From a virus (Duplodnaviria > Heunggongvirae > Uroviricota > Caudoviricetes), in IMG/VR virus record IMGVR_UViG_2695420523_000022: 15,244 nt of DNA; one strand, given 5' to 3'. Shown in pieces: positions 212 through 15,244 of the stretch. The first letter of the stretch is position 1; each line of letters begins with the position of its first letter. The notes under the pieces were generated by a model that made no database searches, was not told where the DNA came from, and saw nothing but the letters and a program-made list of their open reading frames with translations. The position numbers and the translations under genes were made by a program.

Positions 212-233
212 TGACTACACCAGTGACTACACC
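212..233. repeat. Direct repeat TGACTACACC x2 (212-221 and 224-233) close to the insertion junction; candidate integrase arm-type sites
   Basis: Two exact 10-bp copies with 12-bp start-to-start spacing, about 70 bp from the junction. Confidence 0.3.
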
Positions 234-280: not shown

Positions 281-495
281 TATACAGGCGGATCATCTTT
301 CCAGGGGGAAGCGCACCAATTCATGAGGGGCGTTAATGTCGATATGGGGATCCCCACCTACCGGAATTTTTTTCCGGTTAAACGTTAATCAGGCTGGTGG
401 GCTTTACCTGTTCGGTAGGTGTTATGATTATCGTAATACCTTTCCCCCAATGGGGTAAAAGCATCAACCGTAACGAAAGTCGTTATGGTTGCCAC

Positions 496-570
496 TGATA
501 CCCCAAATTTGGGTATCACGAGTAAGACCCAAAATCTGGGTGTTACTCTTACTACCCAAACTACGGGTAG
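496..570. repeat. Three palindromic sites of the form ACCC-N7-GGGT centred at 507, 534 and 561, exactly 27 bp apart
   Basis: TGATACCCCAAATTTGGGTATCA (496-518), ACCCAAAATCTGGGT (527-541), TACCCAAACTACGGGTA (553-569); the second is nested in a 7-bp outer stem AGTAAGA/TCTTACT. Confidence 0.5.
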
Positions 571-589
571 TTTCCGTAGTTTCATGGTC

Positions 590-609
590 GAGTTGCAGAT
601 CTGCAACTC
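590..609. repeat. 20-bp perfect palindrome GAGTTGCAGATCTGCAACTC
   Basis: Exact reverse-complement symmetry; no adjacent T-run on either strand, so not a canonical terminator. Confidence 0.5.
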
Positions 610-901
610 CCCCATTAACCACAGGCGAATTTCCGCCTTCGGTCATTCCTTAATCATCTGCGTAATCATAATGATTATTCAGCAAGCGCAATTTTGCGCT
701 TTGCTTAAAGTTCAGCGAGTTACCGCGCCGACTTCCTCAAATTGAGGTTTCCGAAATATCAGCGGGTTAGCGATTAAGCTGTTCATTAATTAAACTGCGA
801 AAATTTCGTAGTTTGTGACTGTCTTTCAGGCAGCTTGTTAACAGTCCTCAGAAGCGAGGGATGTAGCCACCCATTTTTGGTCCGTCGGGAATATCAACCA
901 G

Positions 902-1196: not shown

Positions 1197-2858
1197 TTAC
1201 ACCCCGCTAAATTCTTCCAGTTTCTGGCGGTGGCTGTCGCTTATATCAAAAGCAAAATCCTCATGCTCTGCCTGGAATGTACCAAACGCCATCAGCGCCG
1301 CCACGCTCGGGTCTATCTTGTTCGGTGATTTTTTCTTGTTCGGCTTGATATTGGCGTTCGCGTCACTCTGCATCACGACGTTACTCATCGACCAGGACAA
1401 CACCGGATCGCCACGATGCACAATCACCCTGCGGTTAACAAAAACTTCGAACGATTTCGCCGCCGGACTGAATCTGAGGTAGGTTTGCGGGAACGGCTCC
1501 ACCTCAAAACCTGCCCCCTGTAATTGCGTTCTGAGATGCGTGGCGTTCCACGTATCAAAGCCCACCAGCCTGATATTAAATTTCTCCGCGTCCTGCATGA
1601 TGTCATCTCTGATCCGGTCGTAATCAATGCAGTCGCCAGGCGTTGTGCGTATCCAGCCTGCTTTAGCCCACTGACGATAGATGGCGCGGTTTTTATTGGC
1701 GGGGTTCTGTAGCTGGAACTCCGGCAGATAATGACGGGAAACCAGCATAATGGTTTTACCGACCGGAAAGGCATAGCACACGCTGGAAATATCGCTTGTG
1801 GATGATAAATCCAGCCCCGCGTAACACTCCTGGCCGTGTAAATCTTCCTCCGTGAACGTTCCGGCACACTCAGCCCATGCGCCGTTACCCATCCACGGGG
1901 TAGTCCCCTGACACCAGATATTAAATCGCTTTGTCATCATCTCCACCCACTGCGACGGAATACCCCGCGCTTTCTGGATGGTTGAGGCCAGTTTTTCACG
2001 ATCCACGGAAACATCAATATTAGGGTTCGCCTTTATCCACATCGCCGGATCATCAACCTCGTTTTCGTCGTCCAGTTCGTAAATCAGTACAAAAATTGAA
2101 TCGTTGACCTCTTCGCCGTCCAGGATCTGGCAGCAATAATCATAGTGCTGCTTACAGGCTGAAACGACGTTACTGCCTGATGTGGTAATAGCAAATAACA
2201 GCCCTTCGGGACGTGCGCCCATCCCCAGCTCAAGCGCGGAATAAACGCCGTTATCGGGGTGCAAGTGGTATTCGTCCACGATGGCAAGACTCGGGTTTGT
2301 ACCTTCAATGGTTGCCGCTTTTGCTGCCAGCGGCTTTAACAGGCTGTTGCTTTTCGGGTGTATCACCTTATGCGCCTGAATATTCACCCGCCTGCGTAAC
2401 GGTCGGGATAAAAGGCACATCTGACGCGCATCATCAAAGACGATCCGCGCCTGGTCACGGCTCACCGCTGCGGTGTAAATATCCTGCTGACCGTTCTCCA
2501 TAATCAGAAACCAGTCAGCCAGAATCGCGGCGGTCGTGGATTTCGCATTTTTGCGCGGCACTTCGATAAAGGCGCTCGTGTATTTGCGCCGTCCGGTGGC
2601 CTTAACCTTAAAGCCGAGGATGCACGCAAAGGCGAACTGCTGCCACGGCTCCAGCTCAATGGGTCTGCCACGCATCGGCCCTTTTACGTGCGGGCACACC
2701 CTTGAAAAGGCAATAAACCGCTCCACAACCTCACGATCGAACGTGTAAAGGGGGCTTTTAAGGTCCGAAAAGTACCGTTTAACAGCCTGTTTTAACCGTT
2801 TACAGGCCGGAATTTTGCCCGTTTTTACGTCTTCTGCGTACTTATTCCAGGCGGTCAA
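1197..2858 (-). CDS. terL: Terminase large subunit (553 aa)
   Basis: Size and translation typical of a phage terminase ATPase/nuclease large subunit; TTG start at 2858 with strong SD (AAGAGGA, 5-nt spacer) and no in-frame ATG nearby; overlaps terS by 17 nt. Confidence 0.85.
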   Translation of the reverse strand: MTAWNKYAEDVKTGKIPACKRLKQAVKRYFSDLKSPLYTFDREVVERFIAFSRVCPHVKGPMRGRPIELEPWQQFAFACILGFKVKATGRRKYTSAFIEVPRKNAKSTTAAILADWFLIMENGQQDIYTAAVSRDQARIVFDDARQMCLLSRPLRRRVNIQAHKVIHPKSNSLLKPLAAKAATIEGTNPSLAIVDEYHLHPDNGVYSALELGMGARPEGLLFAITTSGSNVVSACKQHYDYCCQILDGEEVNDSIFVLIYELDDENEVDDPAMWIKANPNIDVSVDREKLASTIQKARGIPSQWVEMMTKRFNIWCQGTTPWMGNGAWAECAGTFTEEDLHGQECYAGLDLSSTSDISSVCYAFPVGKTIMLVSRHYLPEFQLQNPANKNRAIYRQWAKAGWIRTTPGDCIDYDRIRDDIMQDAEKFNIRLVGFDTWNATHLRTQLQGAGFEVEPFPQTYLRFSPAAKSFEVFVNRRVIVHRGDPVLSWSMSNVVMQSDANANIKPNKKKSPNKIDPSVAALMAFGTFQAEHEDFAFDISDSHRQKLEEFSGV

Positions 2859-3198
2859 GCTCGTCCTCTTCTTCTGTTTCCGGTGGATTTTTACGGCGGC
2901 TTACCGGGTCAAAACCGAGCAAGGAGGCCATTTTTATCATCACTCTTTCAGCGTCGGATTTTGCGCTTAATGCGGGGTTTCTGCTCTCGCCGCCCTGACT
3001 GTTAACAATGCTGAACCCGCGTGCCGCAAGGTCTGCGACGGCTTTCCGGTATATCGAGTAATTGACGCAATACAGTTCCAGATTACTCCAGTCGGCGGGG
3101 GTAAGGTCTCCCCGTTCCGCAAGCTGCCGCGATTTTTCCCGCCACTGCTTCACGGCGATATCATCCAGGTAGGCGGGGGCTTTCGGTGGTCTTGCCAT
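2842..3198 (-). CDS. terS: Terminase small subunit, P27 family (118 aa)
   Basis: N-terminus MARPPKAPAYLDD and overall composition match the P27-family small terminase as I recall it; immediately upstream of terL. Confidence 0.75.
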   Translation of the reverse strand: MARPPKAPAYLDDIAVKQWREKSRQLAERGDLTPADWSNLELYCVNYSIYRKAVADLAARGFSIVNSQGGESRNPALSAKSDAERVMIKMASLLGFDPVSRRKNPPETEEEDELDRLE

Positions 3199-3321
3199 GC
3201 TTATTTTTTCGCCAGATTATTTTTCAAAAAATTCCCGTGCATAAAAATTTGAGGAGGCGTTCGGTGCCCGGCGGGGTCGGGTTTGTCCTGAAAACGCCCC
3301 CCACCCCGTCATACAGCCTCA

Positions 3322-3504
3322 TCAGCGATTGCGGAAACATTCCATAACCTCGCGGTCACGGTCGGTTAATCGCTTCGCTGTGATGCGTTCTGCGCGTCCT
3401 GACGCTTTATCTTTATGCCCTGTTTCCTGTGTCTTCCATGCGTCACGCTGCCTTATAAGTCCACGGATAAGGCGTTTTTGTTCCCGCTCATTCATCAGCG
3501 TCAT
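3322..3504 (-). CDS. Possible small basic protein (60 aa) between HNH and terS; uncertain
   Basis: ATG at 3504 gives MTLMNEREQKRLIRGLIRQRDAWK, overlapping the HNH stop by 17 nt; weak SD; could be a spurious frame. Confidence 0.25.
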   Translation of the reverse strand: MTLMNEREQKRLIRGLIRQRDAWKTQETGHKDKASGRAERITAKRLTDRDREVMECFRNR

Positions 3505-3928
3505 ACATCCAGTTATTGCGGTTAGCGGCCCGTTCTTCCTCTTCACGAAATCCACCTGCGGCACGCTTGCTTTTTGTTGCTGGATCAAGCCACTTCGTTT
3601 TCTGGTTATGACACGCCTGGCACAATGGCTGATGGTTCCATTCGGGCCAGAAGAGAACATCATCACCGCCATTAATCGGGATAATGTGATCCACCACCAC
3701 GGCGGGCGTATATATCCCCTTCTCAAGGCATCGCACGCATAACGGGTTTTTACTCAGATACATGGCGCGGTATTTTTCCCACTGTCTGGAGTACCCACGC
3801 GCGCGGCGGTGTCCTCGTCTGGCATCCTCTGCACGCCATGCCGCCCGCCTGTGCTCCTCACACTTGCCGGACTTAACGCGCCTGTTACAGCCTGGTTCTG
3901 TACATCGTCTTAATGGTTGCCACGGCAT
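3488..3928 (-). CDS. HNH endonuclease (146 aa), packaging-associated
   Basis: Cys pairs (CTEPGC, CEEH, CVRC, CQACH) plus DHIIP and NHQPLC motifs typical of HNH; placed directly before terS/terL as in HK97-like phages; ATG overlaps the connector stop. Confidence 0.8.
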   Translation of the reverse strand: MPWQPLRRCTEPGCNRRVKSGKCEEHRRAAWRAEDARRGHRRARGYSRQWEKYRAMYLSKNPLCVRCLEKGIYTPAVVVDHIIPINGGDDVLFWPEWNHQPLCQACHNQKTKWLDPATKSKRAAGGFREEEERAANRNNWMYDADE

Positions 3929-4224: not shown

Positions 4225-4559
4225 TTTTCCGCGCCCTCACGACAAAGAATTTCAAGGCGTGTCCTGGCGGCATCCGGCAGCGGTTGCCCGATGATATTCA
4301 GTACACGCCCCGCCAGCGGCCCCGTATTGACCTTTATCCGGCTGGTGGCGTTGATGTCCTTCCGGTACCGTATCCAGATCCTTACGGTACCAATCGCCAG
4401 CTCTGCACCCGATGAAATGGCCTCCTTGCTGCTGATCATGTTCACGCTTGCCCAGAGTGTGTGACCGTCCTCCCACGTTTCGAGTATTTCGCCGGTTATA
4501 TCCCTGGTCTGTTTCAGGGTCTGAATCGTTACCCTGTCACGCAGTCGCCCTATGTTCAT
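4221..4559 (-). CDS. Head closure / head-tail adaptor protein (112 aa from ATG at 4559)
   Basis: RDRVTIQ...WASV...IRYRKDI...RI pattern typical of the head-tail joining family; ATG at 4559 overlaps the portal stop; the track ORF extends to 4601 but has no better start. Confidence 0.65.
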   Translation of the reverse strand: MNIGRLRDRVTIQTLKQTRDITGEILETWEDGHTLWASVNMISSKEAISSGAELAIGTVRIWIRYRKDINATSRIKVNTGPLAGRVLNIIGQPLPDAARTRLEILCREGAEK

Positions 4560-8461: not shown

Positions 8462-8872
8462 TCAGAACGGAATACCGTCACCGTAAGGGTCATCGCCTCC
8501 CGCTGGTGGCTGATTACCCTGTGTGCCTGTGGTTTTGCGTCTGTTCCCGCCAGGACGTGCCGCACGGACACTGATTACGCTGTCTGCAATAACCTGATAA
8601 CCCTGCCGCGTTTCCCCGTTCTGTCCGGTCCACTGGCTGACCTGCATCGTGCCGGATACGCTGGCAACGTCGCCTTTTTGATGTTTAGCCAGGAAGTCGG
8701 CCTGCTTACCAAATGCGATGACCGATAGCCATAACGTCGCCTGCCCATCCTGCGCCTGACTACATGGCAACGATACCGCCATACGCGCCAGCGTCATCGG
8801 TGTGCCCTTACTGGTCTGTTTTACCTGCGGGTCGTCCACCAGCCGCCCGTAAGCCGCTATCTGTGCTGTCAT
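8462..8872 (-). CDS. ssb: Single-stranded DNA-binding protein (136 aa)
   Basis: OB-fold-like N-terminus, Gly/Gln-rich linker and acidic C-terminal tail ending DDPYGDGIPF, the canonical SSB tail type; ATG overlaps the upstream stop. Confidence 0.75.
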   Translation of the reverse strand: MTAQIAAYGRLVDDPQVKQTSKGTPMTLARMAVSLPCSQAQDGQATLWLSVIAFGKQADFLAKHQKGDVASVSGTMQVSQWTGQNGETRQGYQVIADSVISVRAARPGGNRRKTTGTQGNQPPAGGDDPYGDGIPF

Positions 8873-9120
8873 GATTCCACCTCTCCGGTTTTAACGTTGA
8901 TGGTTGTTACCTGTTCTGCTTCTGCGATCTCCCGTTCTGTCAGCGTGGCAAAGTTTGCCGCTGCTGTGGTCATGAATGCGCTTATCAGGTCGGGATGTTC
9001 CTTCGCGTATCCTTCCCGCGTGTGGCGGTCTATCGTTCTGATTGCCACCTTTAAGGTGTGCTCAGTCATGTCTAACGCTTTATATTTTGGCTCTGTTCTG
9101 TCTCTGCGTTTTTGGGTCAT
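8869..9120 (-). CDS. Hypothetical protein (83 aa) between the origin and ssb
   Basis: ATG at 9120 (MTQKRRDRTEPKYK...); stop overlaps the ssb ATG; no family recognised. Confidence 0.4.
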   Translation of the reverse strand: MTQKRRDRTEPKYKALDMTEHTLKVAIRTIDRHTREGYAKEHPDLISAFMTTAAANFATLTEREIAEAEQVTTINVKTGEVES

Positions 9121-9131
9121 TTCTCGCAACC

Positions 9132-9323
9132 TCTCACTTTTTCGCCTCACTTTTTCAAGCGTCTCACTTCGTCGCAGTTGGGATTTTCGGTTTTTCTATG
9201 TGTGTGTTTCATAAGTATTTTTTTACCCCTCACTTTTGAGGATGTATACAGGTCGAAAAGTGAGGGAGAGCGGGCTAATTTTGGCCCTCTTTCTATCCCC
9301 CTCGCTTTTGCTCCTCACTTTTA
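9132..9323. repeat. Iteron-type replication origin: at least 5 direct copies and 1 inverted copy of CCTCACTTTT around an AT-rich tract
   Basis: CTCACTT at 9133, 9146, 9163, 9229, 9314; inverted copy AAAAGTGAGG at 9257-9266; degenerate CTCGCTT at 9301; AT-rich 9181-9228; lies directly 3' of the replication gene. Confidence 0.65.
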
Positions 9324-10721
9324 TAGCGGCGCTACATCATCCCCATCGATACGAATAACCCCATCTTTTTCCAGCTTGTACAGCCAGCGCCGGAAGTTTT
9401 TCATTTCATACCCCAGCTTTTTCATGTCATCACGTAACAGCGGGATCGTGCACTTGTCGCCGTTCTGTGTGCGTGAACGGATGCACCCCCATAGCGCGGT
9501 ATGGTTTTCCGTCTTGTTCCCTGCCTCCTCGATGCGCTCCAGTTCAACAGGAGGGCGCGGATCATCCACCACCACCAGCGACGTGATTAATTCACCGTCA
9601 GCGTCGGTAAAAAGCTCCACCACGCGTAAGTCATATGCGGCTTCTTTGAGTTCCTCCGCGTCCTTCATTTTGGTGCATGAGATAACCAGCGCTTCGCTTC
9701 CTGCGTCCTCCCTGCGTATCCGGTATTCAGCATCCAGCGAAGCACGAAATGCACTGGAACCGCGCGCGCCTTTCGTCTCATCCTTGCCGGAATGGTGAAC
9801 CACCAGCACCGTGGCCCCTGTGCGTCGTTTCAGTTCGTCACAACCACGGATAAACGCCCCCATATCACGGGAATCATTTTCATCATTCCCACCAAAGCAA
9901 CGCGCCAGCGTATCCAGAATAATCATGCGTACAGGTTTACCCGTTTCCCGCTCCACCTGACGGGCAGCGATAACCATTTCATCAACATCAAGCGGGGCAG
10001 CCGGAAAGATGGGGCGGTTTACCAGATACAGATTTTTCACCTGCTCATCGTGCACAACCTCCCAGGCTTTTACACGACGCGGAACACCTATACCGCCTTC
10101 ACCAACCACATAGAGAACCGCACCATGTGCAACCCTGCGGCCTCCCCACTGGCGACCAGTGGCAACATGGCACGCCCACGATCCGGCAAGGAATGATTTA
10201 TAGGACCCGCTAGCCCCGTATATGCTGCATAGCGATACCGCCGGAATAATCCCCTTAACCACGTAATCCAGTTGCGTGTCGTATCCGGTAGATCCAACGC
10301 TCATCGGTAGCGTGGTTTTTCGCTGGTGGTTTTTTTCTTCCACCGGCTCTTTCCCGCGCACCCGTTCCAGGTATTCGCGCCAGTTCTCCCGCATATGGCT
10401 GTGCATCCCTTCGGGGTAATAATTCGCATCAGTTACACCCGCCGCCGCCAGCTTGTGCGCAATGGCATTAATATTTGATGGCCTGATGTGGCCTGCCTTG
10501 TACAGCCGGACACAATAGCGCCCCTCGTCGATGATTCTCAGGTCTGCCAGTTCATCCAGTTGATCATCAGCCAGCACAACGGGAGGCACATTATCGCCAG
10601 CCAGTCGCCCGTCCTGTTCCTGCCACTGTTTCGCATGTGCCCACGCATCACTACCCGCAAAAATGATGACTTCGGTCATCTTGTCGTAAGGCTGTTTTTT
10701 TAAGTTCGGTGCGCTTTTCAT
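9321..10721 (-). CDS. Replication initiator / RepA-like RecA-fold ATPase, the satellite pri-rep equivalent (466 aa)
   Basis: Walker A-like GASGSYKS, downstream hydrophobic strand then D (MIILDTLARCFGG) and VLVVHHSGKD, typical of RepA/AAA_25-type replicative ATPases; iterons immediately downstream. Confidence 0.7.
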   Translation of the reverse strand: MKSAPNLKKQPYDKMTEVIIFAGSDAWAHAKQWQEQDGRLAGDNVPPVVLADDQLDELADLRIIDEGRYCVRLYKAGHIRPSNINAIAHKLAAAGVTDANYYPEGMHSHMRENWREYLERVRGKEPVEEKNHQRKTTLPMSVGSTGYDTQLDYVVKGIIPAVSLCSIYGASGSYKSFLAGSWACHVATGRQWGGRRVAHGAVLYVVGEGGIGVPRRVKAWEVVHDEQVKNLYLVNRPIFPAAPLDVDEMVIAARQVERETGKPVRMIILDTLARCFGGNDENDSRDMGAFIRGCDELKRRTGATVLVVHHSGKDETKGARGSSAFRASLDAEYRIRREDAGSEALVISCTKMKDAEELKEAAYDLRVVELFTDADGELITSLVVVDDPRPPVELERIEEAGNKTENHTALWGCIRSRTQNGDKCTIPLLRDDMKKLGYEMKNFRRWLYKLEKDGVIRIDGDDVAPL

Positions 10722-14026: not shown

Positions 14027-15244
14027 TTATTTTCTTCTGGCTACTGGTAGCGTGGTTACGTTTTCATGTGTTCCCGCCAGTATCCCTAACCGCTCCATCC
14101 ACATATCCAGCACATTGCGTTTAGCATCCAGATAACGGGAATGATTATAAACTCGCTGCATTCCTGGCATCTGGTGGCCTGTAAGCTGCTCCACGACATG
14201 CGGATCAACGCCTAAATCGTTCAGCATGGTTGTAAAGGTGCGCCGGATGTCATGCAGTGACCAGTGAGGATGATTAAGCCTCCTGTGCGCTAATCTTCCA
14301 TACTGCGATACGCTGGCCTCCTGTTTCACTTCCCCCAGCAATAAGCCCGTGTGCCTGTTCTGCTCCACCAGCTGCGTGACGAACGGCAGGATCGCTTCCG
14401 GTATGGGCCGGAATATTGCGACCTTCGTTTTGCTGTGCTCCTTCGGAACGGTCCATAGCATTTCCGTAAAATCCCACTCCCCGATCTCCGATAGCCTCAG
14501 TTCTACCGTCCTGGCTCCGAAGACAATCAGGAGGCGGATTAACGCGACGTAGTAAGGGGAAAATATTTTTTTGTCCAGTGCCTGCAATAATTCGCCAAGT
14601 TCTTTGTTACTTAAGACACGTTCGCTTATATCCGGTTTTTTCCCAACGTCCGCCACGTTCAGATCGTCCAGAACGTTGCTGATTGCATAGCGCCGCCTAC
14701 GGCAGAACTTAAGCGCCTGTTTGCACGCCTGTAGCACGAATCCGGCAGTAACAGGCGTTCGCTTTGCCACCAGGTCAAAACAGGCCAGCCAGTGCCGTAG
14801 CTCGCATTTATCCAGCGGCATAGCACCAATCTGCTGTATTACGTGATTATTAAGTCGCCTTTTCAGGGCGATATAATCCACGCGGTTTTCCTTTACGTAA
14901 TACTCAAGCCAATAGGTGAGCGCATCGCCAACCGTTACGGGCTTTAACGCTTCCTGTACGGTGTAATTCATCTCATGACGTGGATTTTTCCCCTCAGCCA
15001 GCCATGTGCGACACTGTGCGGCTTTTTCCCTGGCTGCTTTCAGGCTCAGATCAGGATAACTTCCCAGCTTAATGCGTTCGGGTCGTGTCTCCCTTCCCGT
15101 TCCGGCCCTGTATGTGAAATACCAGGTCAATTTCCCTGATGTTAAATATTTCACGCTCAGGTTTCCGCCATCACTATAAAACGTGTTTTTCTCCGCTGGC
15201 TTACCATGAAGTTTCCTTAGCAAGGTATCGCTCAGTTTGTTCAT
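14027..15244 (-). CDS. int: Tyrosine integrase, P4-type with N-terminal arm-binding domain (405 aa)
   Basis: N-terminus ...FYSDGGNLSVKYLTSGKLTWYFTYR...IKLGSYPDLSLKAAREKA matches the P4-like integrase N-domain; C-terminal HDIRRT...H..Y catalytic region; ATG sits exactly at the window edge, so the true start and promoter are unseen. Confidence 0.85.
   Translation of the reverse strand: MNKLSDTLLRKLHGKPAEKNTFYSDGGNLSVKYLTSGKLTWYFTYRAGTGRETRPERIKLGSYPDLSLKAAREKAAQCRTWLAEGKNPRHEMNYTVQEALKPVTVGDALTYWLEYYVKENRVDYIALKRRLNNHVIQQIGAMPLDKCELRHWLACFDLVAKRTPVTAGFVLQACKQALKFCRRRRYAISNVLDDLNVADVGKKPDISERVLSNKELGELLQALDKKIFSPYYVALIRLLIVFGARTVELRLSEIGEWDFTEMLWTVPKEHSKTKVAIFRPIPEAILPFVTQLVEQNRHTGLLLGEVKQEASVSQYGRLAHRRLNHPHWSLHDIRRTFTTMLNDLGVDPHVVEQLTGHQMPGMQRVYNHSRYLDAKRNVLDMWMERLGILAGTHENVTTLPVARRK

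Follow-up and report, generated by a model that had tools for sequence, protein, structure and literature searches.

A conserved hairpin cassette in the non-coding tail of phage-inducible chromosomal islands of the capsid-forming type: a candidate structured 3' untranslated RNA

The island and its non-coding tail

The 15,244-nucleotide stretch of DNA analyzed here (the window; IMG/VR record IMGVR_UViG_2695420523_000022) starts with the first ~135 nt of the Escherichia coli gene tqsA, and the remainder is an integrated island with all of its genes on the minus strand. Its sequence identifies the window as a phage-inducible chromosomal island of the capsid-forming class (cf-PICI) that resembles EcCIEDL933 and is inserted in tqsA of E. 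coli. The subject of this report is a palindrome-rich block (300-720) that is part of a predicted non-coding tail of ~760 bp between the last island gene and attL. At the center of this block lies a cassette of hairpins, which is found in many PICIs and which we tentatively read as a structured RNA in the 3' untranslated region (3'UTR) of the late packaging operon.

The cf-PICIs have been defined on EcCIEDL933 (Alqurainy et al. preprint, 10.1101/2022.09.08.507074; He et al., 10.1101/2025.02.11.637232), and neither of these papers describes the non-coding tail or maps cos. The gene order of EcCIEDL933 is also that of the window: int, regulators, replication, capsid, protease, portal, connectors, HNH endonuclease, small terminase (TerS) of the P27 family and large terminase (TerL), all on one strand. 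In the window, the integrase (14027-15244) is followed by a PerC-like regulator, an SSB, an AAA_25 replication helicase, the major capsid protein, the protease, the portal and the head connectors, and then by the HNH endonuclease (3488-3928), TerS (2842-3198) and TerL (1197-2858). The last island gene (902-1183, phrog_1561) encodes a protein of 93 aa that is almost confined to PICIs; it is modeled as three helices (pLDDT 74), and a fold search with the model gave no significant match.

The tail was aligned with those of EcCIEDL933 (next to phoQ), the island of strain EH41 (tqsA), a classical Rpp-type PICI adjoining thiM (locus L002) and further loci of the viral collection. Three parts can be distinguished, namely an att-proximal arm (140-~440), the inserted cassette (494-650), and a region of decayed "gene 3' end + hairpin" copies (650-900). 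The EcCIEDL933 tail is homologous to that of the window at 140-490 and 650-900 but does not contain the 494-650 segment: its sequence ...GTGGTTGCC is joined directly to TTGATGGTCTGCGTGG..., which is the counterpart of window position 651 onward. A much closer relative is the island of O26:H11 strain 11368, in which tqsA is annotated as split and which is 99.5% identical to the left 760 bp of the window. Despite this nearly identical tail, the replication genes of the two islands differ, with a 466-aa AAA_25 helicase in the window (9321-10721) and a 605-aa primase-family protein in the O26 island (L001 25264-27081). Replication modules thus appear to have been swapped inside one island lineage.

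Structure of the hairpin cassette

The first-pass annotation listed eight dyads in the block, and all of them exist, as seen by direct reading and by script, with a single correction of position: the last, AAGCGCAA-TT-TTGCGCTT, lies at 684-701 and not at 680-697. Three belong to the att-proximal arm, namely GGGGATCCCC (346-355), CCGGAA-T5-TTCCGG (361-377) and a long-range inverted repeat of CACCTACCG (355-363) with CGGTAGGTG (413-421). The cassette contains three ACCC-N7-GGGT sites (500-514, 527-541 and 554-568), centered at 507, 534 and 561 and hence at the exact 27-bp spacing first described, and a perfect 20-bp palindrome, GAGTTGCAGATCTGCAACTC (590-609, minus strand).

The claim that this array is not due to chance was borne out. 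The ACCC-N7-GGGT pattern has 4 matches in the window against 0.16 expected, a number reached in 0/200 shuffles. For perfect dyads (stem length 5-8 bp), the density is 10 to 30 times the window mean; the dyad count of the block was reached by 0/300 shuffles and ranks first among 297 sliding windows. Likewise, the three 27-nt units that begin at 498, 525 and 552 share 16-19 of 27 positions in pairwise comparison (59-70%; 0/2000 shuffles). This last result changes the meaning of the spacing, which had been taken as a sign of protein recognition or of a folded RNA. Because the units resemble each other to this extent, their exact phasing is better read as the trace of an old tandem triplication, now too degenerate for Tandem Repeats Finder to call, and the phasing is not strictly conserved among relatives (see below).

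The block had also been described as lacking a credible open reading frame (ORF). Three ORFs do overlap it, one of 86 aa on the plus strand and two of 76 and 60 aa on the minus strand, but a coding role for them was rejected: none has a Pfam match, and synonymous and non-synonymous changes are about equally frequent in all six frames. An initial impression of third-position bias disappeared on counting.

The cassette (~494-614) and the adjoining hairpin X together make up a 157-bp segment (494-650, minus strand) that is absent from EcCIEDL933 by alignment. Unit 1, (T)GATACCC-N7-GGGTATC(A) (496-518, minus strand), has a hypervariable loop, and its closing pair covaries between T-A and C-G, with a C-A intermediate. 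Unit 2, GAGTAA-G-ACCCA-AAATC-TGGGT-G-TTACTC (520-548, minus strand), has an invariant loop. The "ACCC" of this second site owes its A to the window lineage, since 27 of the 28 distinct copies read CCCC. Unit 3, ACTACCC-N7-GGGTAGT (551-571, minus strand), is mutually exclusive with an alternative hairpin, AAACTACGG/CCGTAGTTT (558-582, minus strand). A direct repeat, GTAGTTTC, occurs twice within 551-582, and one lineage (L104/L172) has lost one of the two copies, so that unit 3 and the palindrome are 9 bp closer together. The 8-bp arms of the palindrome are invariant in all copies, around a center that reads AGATCT or AAATCT.

The copies in loci L127 and L015 begin at CCCAAAATCTGGG and have no unit 1, so the minimal conserved core runs from unit 2 to the palindrome (527-609, minus strand). 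Hairpin X, GGCGAATTTCCGCC (624-639), follows the palindrome in the window; in most other elements it stands, inverted, on the opposite side of the cassette, as an 11-bp terminator-like hairpin of the minus strand. Diversity within the cassette is low, with a mean column identity of 95%.

Distribution and genomic context

A query consisting of positions 520-612 was found in 664 of 5426 complete E. coli genomes (~12%), at 754 places that are nearly all full-length and mostly at least 95% identical; the median is one copy per genome and the maximum six. No RNA or other non-coding feature is annotated at any of the 754 places, and a few list a called "hypothetical protein". Two scans of the viral collection, one for the palindrome and one for the architecture alone (three ACCC-N7-GGGT sites at 27-bp spacing), gave matches from this cassette family only, 64 of them to the architecture, apart from the palindrome match in a prophage gene described below. 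The cassette has no match in 50,697 phage records, single-stranded DNA phages included, whereas a satellite-borne copy of a helper cos or pac site should be present in helper phage genomes too. A literature search did not find its exact sequences. Divergent homologues were sought by a single-protein scan of genome contigs, which led to one locus, and by the viral architecture pattern, which returned the same family; as neither gave a divergent version, the power to detect covariation is low.

Conservation of the three phased sites in related elements, a check suggested in the first-pass annotation, is not strict. The array is widespread and its copies are similar, but site 1 is missing in some of them, the spacing has changed by 9 bp in one lineage, and the ACCC form of site 2 is rare.

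The 20-mer of the palindrome (590-609, center A or G) is also found inside a prophage gene (e.g. in L007, L011 and L012), where it encodes ELQICNS. The gene looks like a KilA-N-type antirepressor, and a diverged homologue has a perfect palindrome between different flanks. This match, although odd, is probably chance plus codon constraint, because it concerns a 19-base pattern in a large collection and has no flanking similarity.

The genomic position of the cassette is far more constant than its surroundings. In all 33 matched loci of the viral collection, and in every genome context inspected, it lies 3' of the ~93-aa last gene in one and the same orientation. The distance from the stop codon is ~40 nt in most elements; a few lineages have extra sequence, and in the window the distance is ~290 nt. 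The carriers have three different packaging architectures (the cf-PICI TerS/TerL/HNH type, the Rpp/DUF1441 type, and a 180-aa TerS with decoration and capsid proteins) and occupy at least six att sites, among them tqsA, thiM, hpt, tRNA-Ile/mug and clpS. Between such elements, identity is 91-94% in the cassette but 81-87% in the neighboring gene, and the flanks show no relationship. The cassette was not found in the Klebsiella and Enterobacter cf-PICIs, in vB_KppS-Ant or in EcCIEDL933, the last of which is induced, packaged and transferred (10.1101/2022.09.08.507074). Since the functional prototype and the relatives from other genera do without it, the cassette is, on this comparison of genomes, an accessory and dispensable feature.

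One explanation of this pattern is that the cassette has no present function. It would be a remnant of ancient terminator-like hairpins in tandem repeat, now in decay and carried along with the last gene as recombination reshuffles a Chi-rich mosaic region. Its dispensability in the prototype cf-PICI and its absence from other genera would follow naturally, the surroundings at 650-900 consist of decayed duplicates, some stems have uncompensated breaks, the low diversity fits a recent spread, and Chi sites lie at or near the cassette edges. Set against this, the 754 copies in 664 genomes have remained nearly all full-length and mostly at least 95% identical while the flanks and the coding gene diverge more, and both the stems (paired in 94.5% of cells) and the invariant palindrome arms have been kept. 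We regard a functionless cassette as unlikely, though slightly more likely than the other alternatives.

Chi sites (GCTGGTGG) are over-represented in the window as a whole, with 15 sites on both strands of the 15.2 kb against 0.47 expected from shuffles (e.g. 393-400, 1562-1569 and 4341-4348), and there are 10 in the 18-kb locus L002. The palindrome of the common cassette type has a Chi site (CCACCAGC) immediately at its right edge. Such sites could defend island DNA, replicating or packaged, against RecBCD, and might also underlie the mosaic make-up of the tails.

The same distribution bears on the possibility that the cassette works as duplex DNA, with three dyads and a palindrome bound by a dimeric protein of the island, the helper or the host, as a regulatory platform or a decoy. 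Dyad symmetry and the fixed 27-bp spacing would be expected of such an array, the spacers and linkers from 528 to 609 are invariant, and the layout brings the lambda origin to mind. Only (A/C)CCC...GGGT is common to the three sites, however, with the A missing from site 2 in 27 of 28 copies; site 1 is lacking in some copies, and the distance from site 3 to the palindrome shifts by 9 bp in one lineage. Furthermore, for all the heavy mosaicism, the cassette never points the other way relative to the operon; it goes with either type of replication protein, and the sites occur in no phage genome. The 93-aa protein was considered as a binding partner and rejected: it occurs without the cassette, and its three-helix model has no significant fold match and no DNA-binding fold. 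A protein-bound array is therefore an unlikely explanation.

An independent accessory gene (a "moron") would account for other aspects of the distribution. Its product could be a trans-acting small RNA (sRNA), for example one processed from the 3'UTR, or the peptide of a small minus-strand ORF (MKLRKLPVVWVVRVTPRFWGLLAIPK, 585 to 508). The cassette is a discrete insertion or deletion relative to EcCIEDL933, is better conserved (91-94%) than the neighboring gene (81-87%), and in most elements is followed by a terminator-like hairpin; read by hand, the two commonest core polymorphisms (520 and 579) are synonymous in the small ORF. Yet there is no promoter-like site in or beside the cassette and no Shine-Dalgarno sequence before the ATG. 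The end of the ORF varies, giving 26 aa from an internal ATG in the common type and a longer product in the window by hand reading (52 and 76 aa are listed), and the synonymous and non-synonymous counts are alike in six frames. For an RNA product, the absence of an Rfam match and of a terminator partner conserved between cassette types count in the same direction. An independent gene is accordingly a rather doubtful proposition.

Relationship to attachment, packaging and replication sites

Two of the functions that the first-pass annotation put forward for the block, a terminase recognition array and an att-proximal recombination site, can be judged from the position of the cassette relative to better candidates. 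The att core is a 9-bp sequence, TGCTGTTAT (129-137), at the junction of the tqsA 5' fragment and the island, and is the longest sequence common to attL and attR of the O26:H11 11368 island. Two direct repeats of TGACTACACC follow at 212-233 (plus strand), to the left of the block as first described. A block similar to these repeats adjoins int at the opposite end of the island (208-266 matches L001 30713-30771), and L002, which has a different core, has two copies of TGACCACACA in their place. On the strength of this recurrence beside int and this replacement in L002, the TGACTACACC repeats are probably arm-type sites of the integrase. Arm-type sites are expected to be short direct repeats within ~200 bp of the core on both arms that covary with the integrase. 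The TGACTACACC repeats fit this description and the cassette, at 355-480 bp from the core, does not: it stays the same where the core or the arm repeats change, as in the element with the TGACCACACA repeats. The left edge of the block is thus att-proximal, as first suggested, but a recombination site is not supported for the phased sites, which are more than 350 bp from the core and identical in islands with other cores and arm repeats.

Packaging signals seem to be located elsewhere as well. With HNH-dependent terminases, the expected place of cos is the interval from hnh to terS, and in the window this interval contains a G-rich element, GACGGGGTGGGGGGCGTTTTCAGGAC... (~3255-3320, minus strand). 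The GenBank record of vB_KppS-Ant, an induced cf-PICI with a TerL 81% identical, ends exactly at the homologous sequence ...GGGGTGGGGGAGGTTTTCAGGAC and starts 22 nt before terS, and a comparable G-run is found near the right end of HK97. Because of this match to the right terminus of vB_KppS-Ant and the HK97-like G-run, the cos of the window island most probably lies in the hnh-terS gap, at ~3255-3320.

A reading of the cassette as a cos or pac array, or as an integrase or excisionase site, has some superficial appeal. The block is near attL, and unit 3 (TACGGGTAGTTTCCG) matches the lambda cosQ region at 13 of 15 positions, at a distance of 37 nt from the symmetric element compared with 38 nt in lambda (estimated p ~0.07). 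The cosQ match was nonetheless discarded on account of the position of the cassette, its absence from phages and its dispensability. The cassette is downstream of terL and the 93-aa gene, and in L002 it is downstream of rpp, with cos1 upstream. In classical PICIs, a lambda-like cos1 is located upstream of rpp (PMC6739421, PMC9026076). These PICIs also carry the cassette, no phage does, and EcCIEDL933 and vB_KppS-Ant are packaged without it. A lambda-type cos would have a cosN close to the 12-nt cohesive-end sequence of the helper, with cosQ ~30 bp upstream. Alignment of the lambda cos junction to the tail yields little, namely a gapped match of score 36 that is weak and contains nothing like GGGCGGCGACCT, although the same alignment finds cos1 of L002 clearly. 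No resemblance to a lambda- or HK97-type cos thus held up, and a role of the cassette in terminase recognition or as an integrase or excisionase site is very improbable indeed. A suspected "cos2" in L002 (~8870-8925, GGGGCGGG...CCCGCCCC) was also rejected; it has no similarity to cos1 and reads as a terminator, with a G+C-rich hairpin followed by U6.

The layout of the lambda origin, in which dyad repeats, a moderately AT-rich linker and a palindrome occur together, resembles that of the cassette. An origin of this style was nevertheless ruled out, because the cassette is indifferent to the type of replication protein and the PICI origin is defined elsewhere. The cassette is the same in islands with the AAA_25 helicase (the window) and the 605-aa primase (O26 and L002), it has no direct iterons and does not look like the iteron clusters that PICIs do have, and it is ~8.7 kb from the replication gene (9321-10721). 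PICI origins consist of two sets of direct iterons around an AT-rich stretch, 3' of pri-rep (PMC6092414).

A more restricted version of this idea is that the hairpins, in single-stranded DNA, recruit a primase or primosome, in connection with a second crr-like copy of the origin. The island encodes its own SSB, and a second iteron/AT-rich/iteron cluster stands beside the cassette in L065, L016, L127 and L158, between two cassette copies in the first three. Most elements, including the window, have no iteron cluster near the cassette, however; the cassette does not track the replication-protein type, the known PICI origin is 3' of pri-rep (PMC6092414), and there is no similarity to any phage sequence, single-stranded DNA phages included. 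A single-strand replication signal is therefore improbable. The second clusters themselves (GCGGGTTA x3 ... TAACCCGC x3; L065 1190-1350, L016, two in L127, and L158) are like the canonical origin. In L065, L016 and L127 the cluster is flanked by two direct cassette copies ~435 bp apart, an arrangement that recalls ori plus crr of P4.

A proposed role of the cassette as a structured 3' untranslated RNA

Of the functions first suggested for the block, a structured RNA is the most defensible, in view of the position of the cassette, its folding scores and the upkeep of its stems. In the common arrangement, seen in L002, L173 and L174, the minus strand reads from the stop codon through a small hairpin, the palindrome, units 3, 2 and 1 and a spacer of ~28 nt to hairpin X. 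Hairpin X has 11 pairs in these elements, 8 of them G-C, and a U-rich tail, UACUUAUUGU, and the terminator scan calls it as a terminator. The cassette is thus co-oriented with the operon and located between its last stop codon and its terminator, and because it occupies this interval it fills the 3'UTR of the late operon. That the operon ends with the 93-aa gene can be deduced from the Klebsiella and Enterobacter cf-PICIs, in which only 12-20 nt separate the homologous small gene from a canonical intrinsic terminator.

Both strands of the cassette fold better than shuffled sequences (z = -7.6 and -8.3), and the RNA fold of either strand consists of separate hairpins, one each for units 1 and 2, one for the palindrome, and one for unit 3 or its alternative. 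The stems are paired in 94.5% of cells over 22 to 28 distinct copies. Pairing is better on the minus than on the plus strand for the outer stem of unit 2 (96.4% vs 93.5%), the alternative hairpin (99.2% vs 94.8%) and the extension of the palindrome (90.2% vs 68.8%). Cells that are A-C on the plus strand and G-U on the minus strand occur at 520-548 (11/28 copies), 561-579 (11/28) and 584-615 (22/28), with the reverse case, A545G, in 6/28. The non-Watson-Crick cells thus lean, weakly, to the operon sense strand.

Based on these data, the cassette may be a structured 3' untranslated RNA of the late packaging operon. This is the explanation that we favor, tentatively, over those discussed above. 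The cassette (~494-614, plus hairpin X to 650) would have been built by triplication of a 27-nt hairpin, followed by a perfect hairpin with an 8-bp stem. It would be transcribed from the minus strand, after the last stop codon, as the 3'UTR of the late (capsid/packaging) operon, and the RNA would fold in vivo into four or five stable stem-loops in series. These hairpins could block 3'-to-5' exonucleases, help to keep transcription from running on (into attP-int when the island is an excised circle, into host DNA when it is integrated), or do both, and late-gene expression would be raised and insulated as a result. Homologous recombination, maybe aided by Chi sites, would have spread the cassette between unrelated PICI lineages.

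Several observations weigh against this model. The cassette hairpins have no U-tract on the minus strand, and none is a canonical terminator. The loops of units 2 and 3 and the linkers are invariant, which is more than a simple exonuclease barrier needs. Only one pair shows a compensatory change (the closing pair of unit 1, T-A to C-G), next to several uncompensated breaks, and the 527-541 pair of unit 2 is broken in 27 of 28 distinct copies. The changes G520A and A545G point to opposite strands, and with a diversity as low as this the conservation could reflect recent spread and not constraint. In the window lineage, hairpin X is on the other side of the cassette and has its U-rich tail on the plus strand, so the 3'UTR layout is not universal; there, the next minus-strand hairpin is an 11-bp one at 488-464 (AACCGTAACGA/TCGTTATGGTT), followed by GAUGCUUUUA. 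EcCIEDL933 has this hairpin too, altered at positions that still pair, as G-U, on the plus strand but not on the minus strand. Finally, EcCIEDL933 is functional without a cassette.

The cassette corresponds to no known RNA family. The covariance-model scan that the first-pass annotation had proposed was run with Rfam 15 and matched no family at the gathering threshold across the whole window; the best permissive hits (E 2.8-5.1) were to unrelated eukaryotic and viral families. ARAGORN detected no tRNA or tmRNA, and no promoter-like site was found inside or next to the cassette. Intrinsic-terminator calls within the cassette were limited to a weak one for unit 2 on the plus strand, with none on the minus strand.

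A variation on the 3'UTR model is that the cassette is a satellite-specific regulatory RNA, made only at times when the late operon fires. As a processed 3'UTR-derived sRNA or as an RNA decoy it would act in trans on transcripts or proteins of the helper phage or the host, and it would be a minimal non-coding "moron" that unrelated PICI lineages have exchanged by Chi-stimulated recombination. We consider this quite unlikely.

Other features of the tail and of related islands

The att-proximal arm (140-440) is common, with rearrangements, to PICIs at other att sites and is collinear with those of L002, EcCIEDL933 and EH41. It contains three of the dyads listed above, the 355-421 pair forming a compound hairpin, and a Chi site (393-400). 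The first dyad, GGGGATCCCC, is what a 10-bp deletion has left of a near-perfect palindrome of 22 bp, CGATATGGGGATCCCCATATCG, and the versions in EH41 and EDL933 have one mismatch each. The other two, CCGGAA-T5-TTCCGG and the 355-421 long-range stem, are also present in EDL933 and EH41.

To the right of the cassette, a palindrome, AATCATAATGATTATTC (664-680), has its counterpart in TGGTCATTATGACCA of EDL933 and is overlapped by a possible minus-strand -10 sequence, TATGAT. This palindrome and its companion in the tail, TTATGATTATCGTAATA (421-437), have sequences that we take to resemble Fur boxes.

Farther right are two decayed copies of a "small hairpin + 93-aa gene 3' end" unit (684-729 and 735-772). 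Each unit consists of a small self-complementary hairpin of variable sequence and then TTYCCG-AAATATCA-NC-AGTTACCGCC, the sequence with which the 93-aa gene ends, stop codon included. The 684-701 dyad is one of these small hairpins, and the live unit, with hairpin ACCCATTTTTGGT and the actual 3' end and stop codon of the gene, is at 868-913. The stems of the small hairpins covary between elements (GCGC/GCGC, GCTC/GAGC, GTGC/GCAC, ACCC/GGGC and CAGCC/GGCTG), and CCTCAAATTGAGG, CGCCGCTGGCG, CAGCCGTTGGCTG and CTGCATTGCAG each precede the same TTYCCGAAAATATCA. The EDL933 counterpart of the decayed hairpin copies receives a terminator-like call on the plus strand.

In two related islands, an extra gene lies between terL and the small last gene. 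It encodes a 765-aa protein annotated as tape measure in vB_KppS-Ant (L126 2036-4333) and a Lambda_tail_I-like protein of 204 aa in an Enterobacter cf-PICI (L176 1878-2492). Such genes were unexpected, as cf-PICIs are said to have no tail genes. The database protein P0182 combines the N-terminal 46 residues of Fis with the C-terminal half of a short (62-63 aa) homologue of the last-gene product, and the two parts meet at LNGQD, a motif common to both; this fusion suggests an island junction, or recombination, inside fis.

Significance and relationship to known systems

PICIs, and cf-PICIs above all, are being studied intensely as vehicles of gene transfer. The present analysis adds a map of the tail, a probable position for cos, and an unannotated element of ~120 bp that is found across three packaging architectures and yet is dispensable. 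If the cassette does tune the late operon or make a trans-acting RNA, it would be a compact and easily tested accessory trait of a satellite; if it is functionless, it still marks recombination between PICI lineages. In either case, the palindrome array should not be labeled cos, ori or att in genome annotation.

The cassette has points in common with several known systems without belonging to any of them. Type III toxin-antitoxin RNA repeats provide a poor fit, as the repeats of the cassette are degenerate and 3' of the last gene, with no toxin-like ORF after them. With lambda cos and the cos1 and cos2 sites of PICIs (PMC6092414, PMC6739421, PMC9026076), the cassette shares repeated sites beside a symmetric element and a short resemblance to cosQ. 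It differs from these in having no cosN-like sequence, in its position, in its absence from phages and in being dispensable for packaging. Like the PICI origin and the ori-crr arrangement of P4, the cassette has repeats by a moderately AT-rich stretch, and a few elements have a second iteron cluster beside it, but its repeats are dyads and not iterons, and they are the same across different replication proteins.

A closer parallel can be drawn with the sib/tI region of phage lambda, a structured RNA beyond the operon end and near att that depends on read-through and acts, as sib, on int across attP. The cassette likewise lies past the end of an operon and close to att, and any effect of it would depend on read-through as well. 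It is on the operon side of att, however, so that integration does not separate it from the operon. In addition, the minimum-energy fold of the cassette consists of three short hairpins and not of a long duplex of the RNase III type, although the arms at 499-531 and 537-569 can alternatively form one long imperfect duplex.

The repetitive extragenic palindromic (REP) sequences, the bacterial interspersed mosaic elements (BIMEs) that contain them and the enterobacterial repetitive intergenic consensus (ERIC) sequences are stem-loop elements in the 3'UTRs of enterobacterial operons, where they stabilize the upstream mRNA. The cassette is like REP and ERIC in being non-coding, in its size class (~30-130 nt), in its imperfect palindromes, in its location after a stop codon and in lacking a U-tract; co-transcription with the upstream gene, a feature of REP and ERIC, would be expected of the cassette also. 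However, REP and ERIC are scattered, in both orientations, through hundreds of unrelated intergenic regions, whereas the cassette is found, in every context inspected, in a PICI tail, in one orientation, once or rarely twice per element. Its sequence is not similar to theirs, and it matches nothing in Rfam. As far as its sequence and position allow a classification, the cassette is a PICI-restricted and previously undescribed family of a familiar kind, the structured extragenic 3'UTR element.

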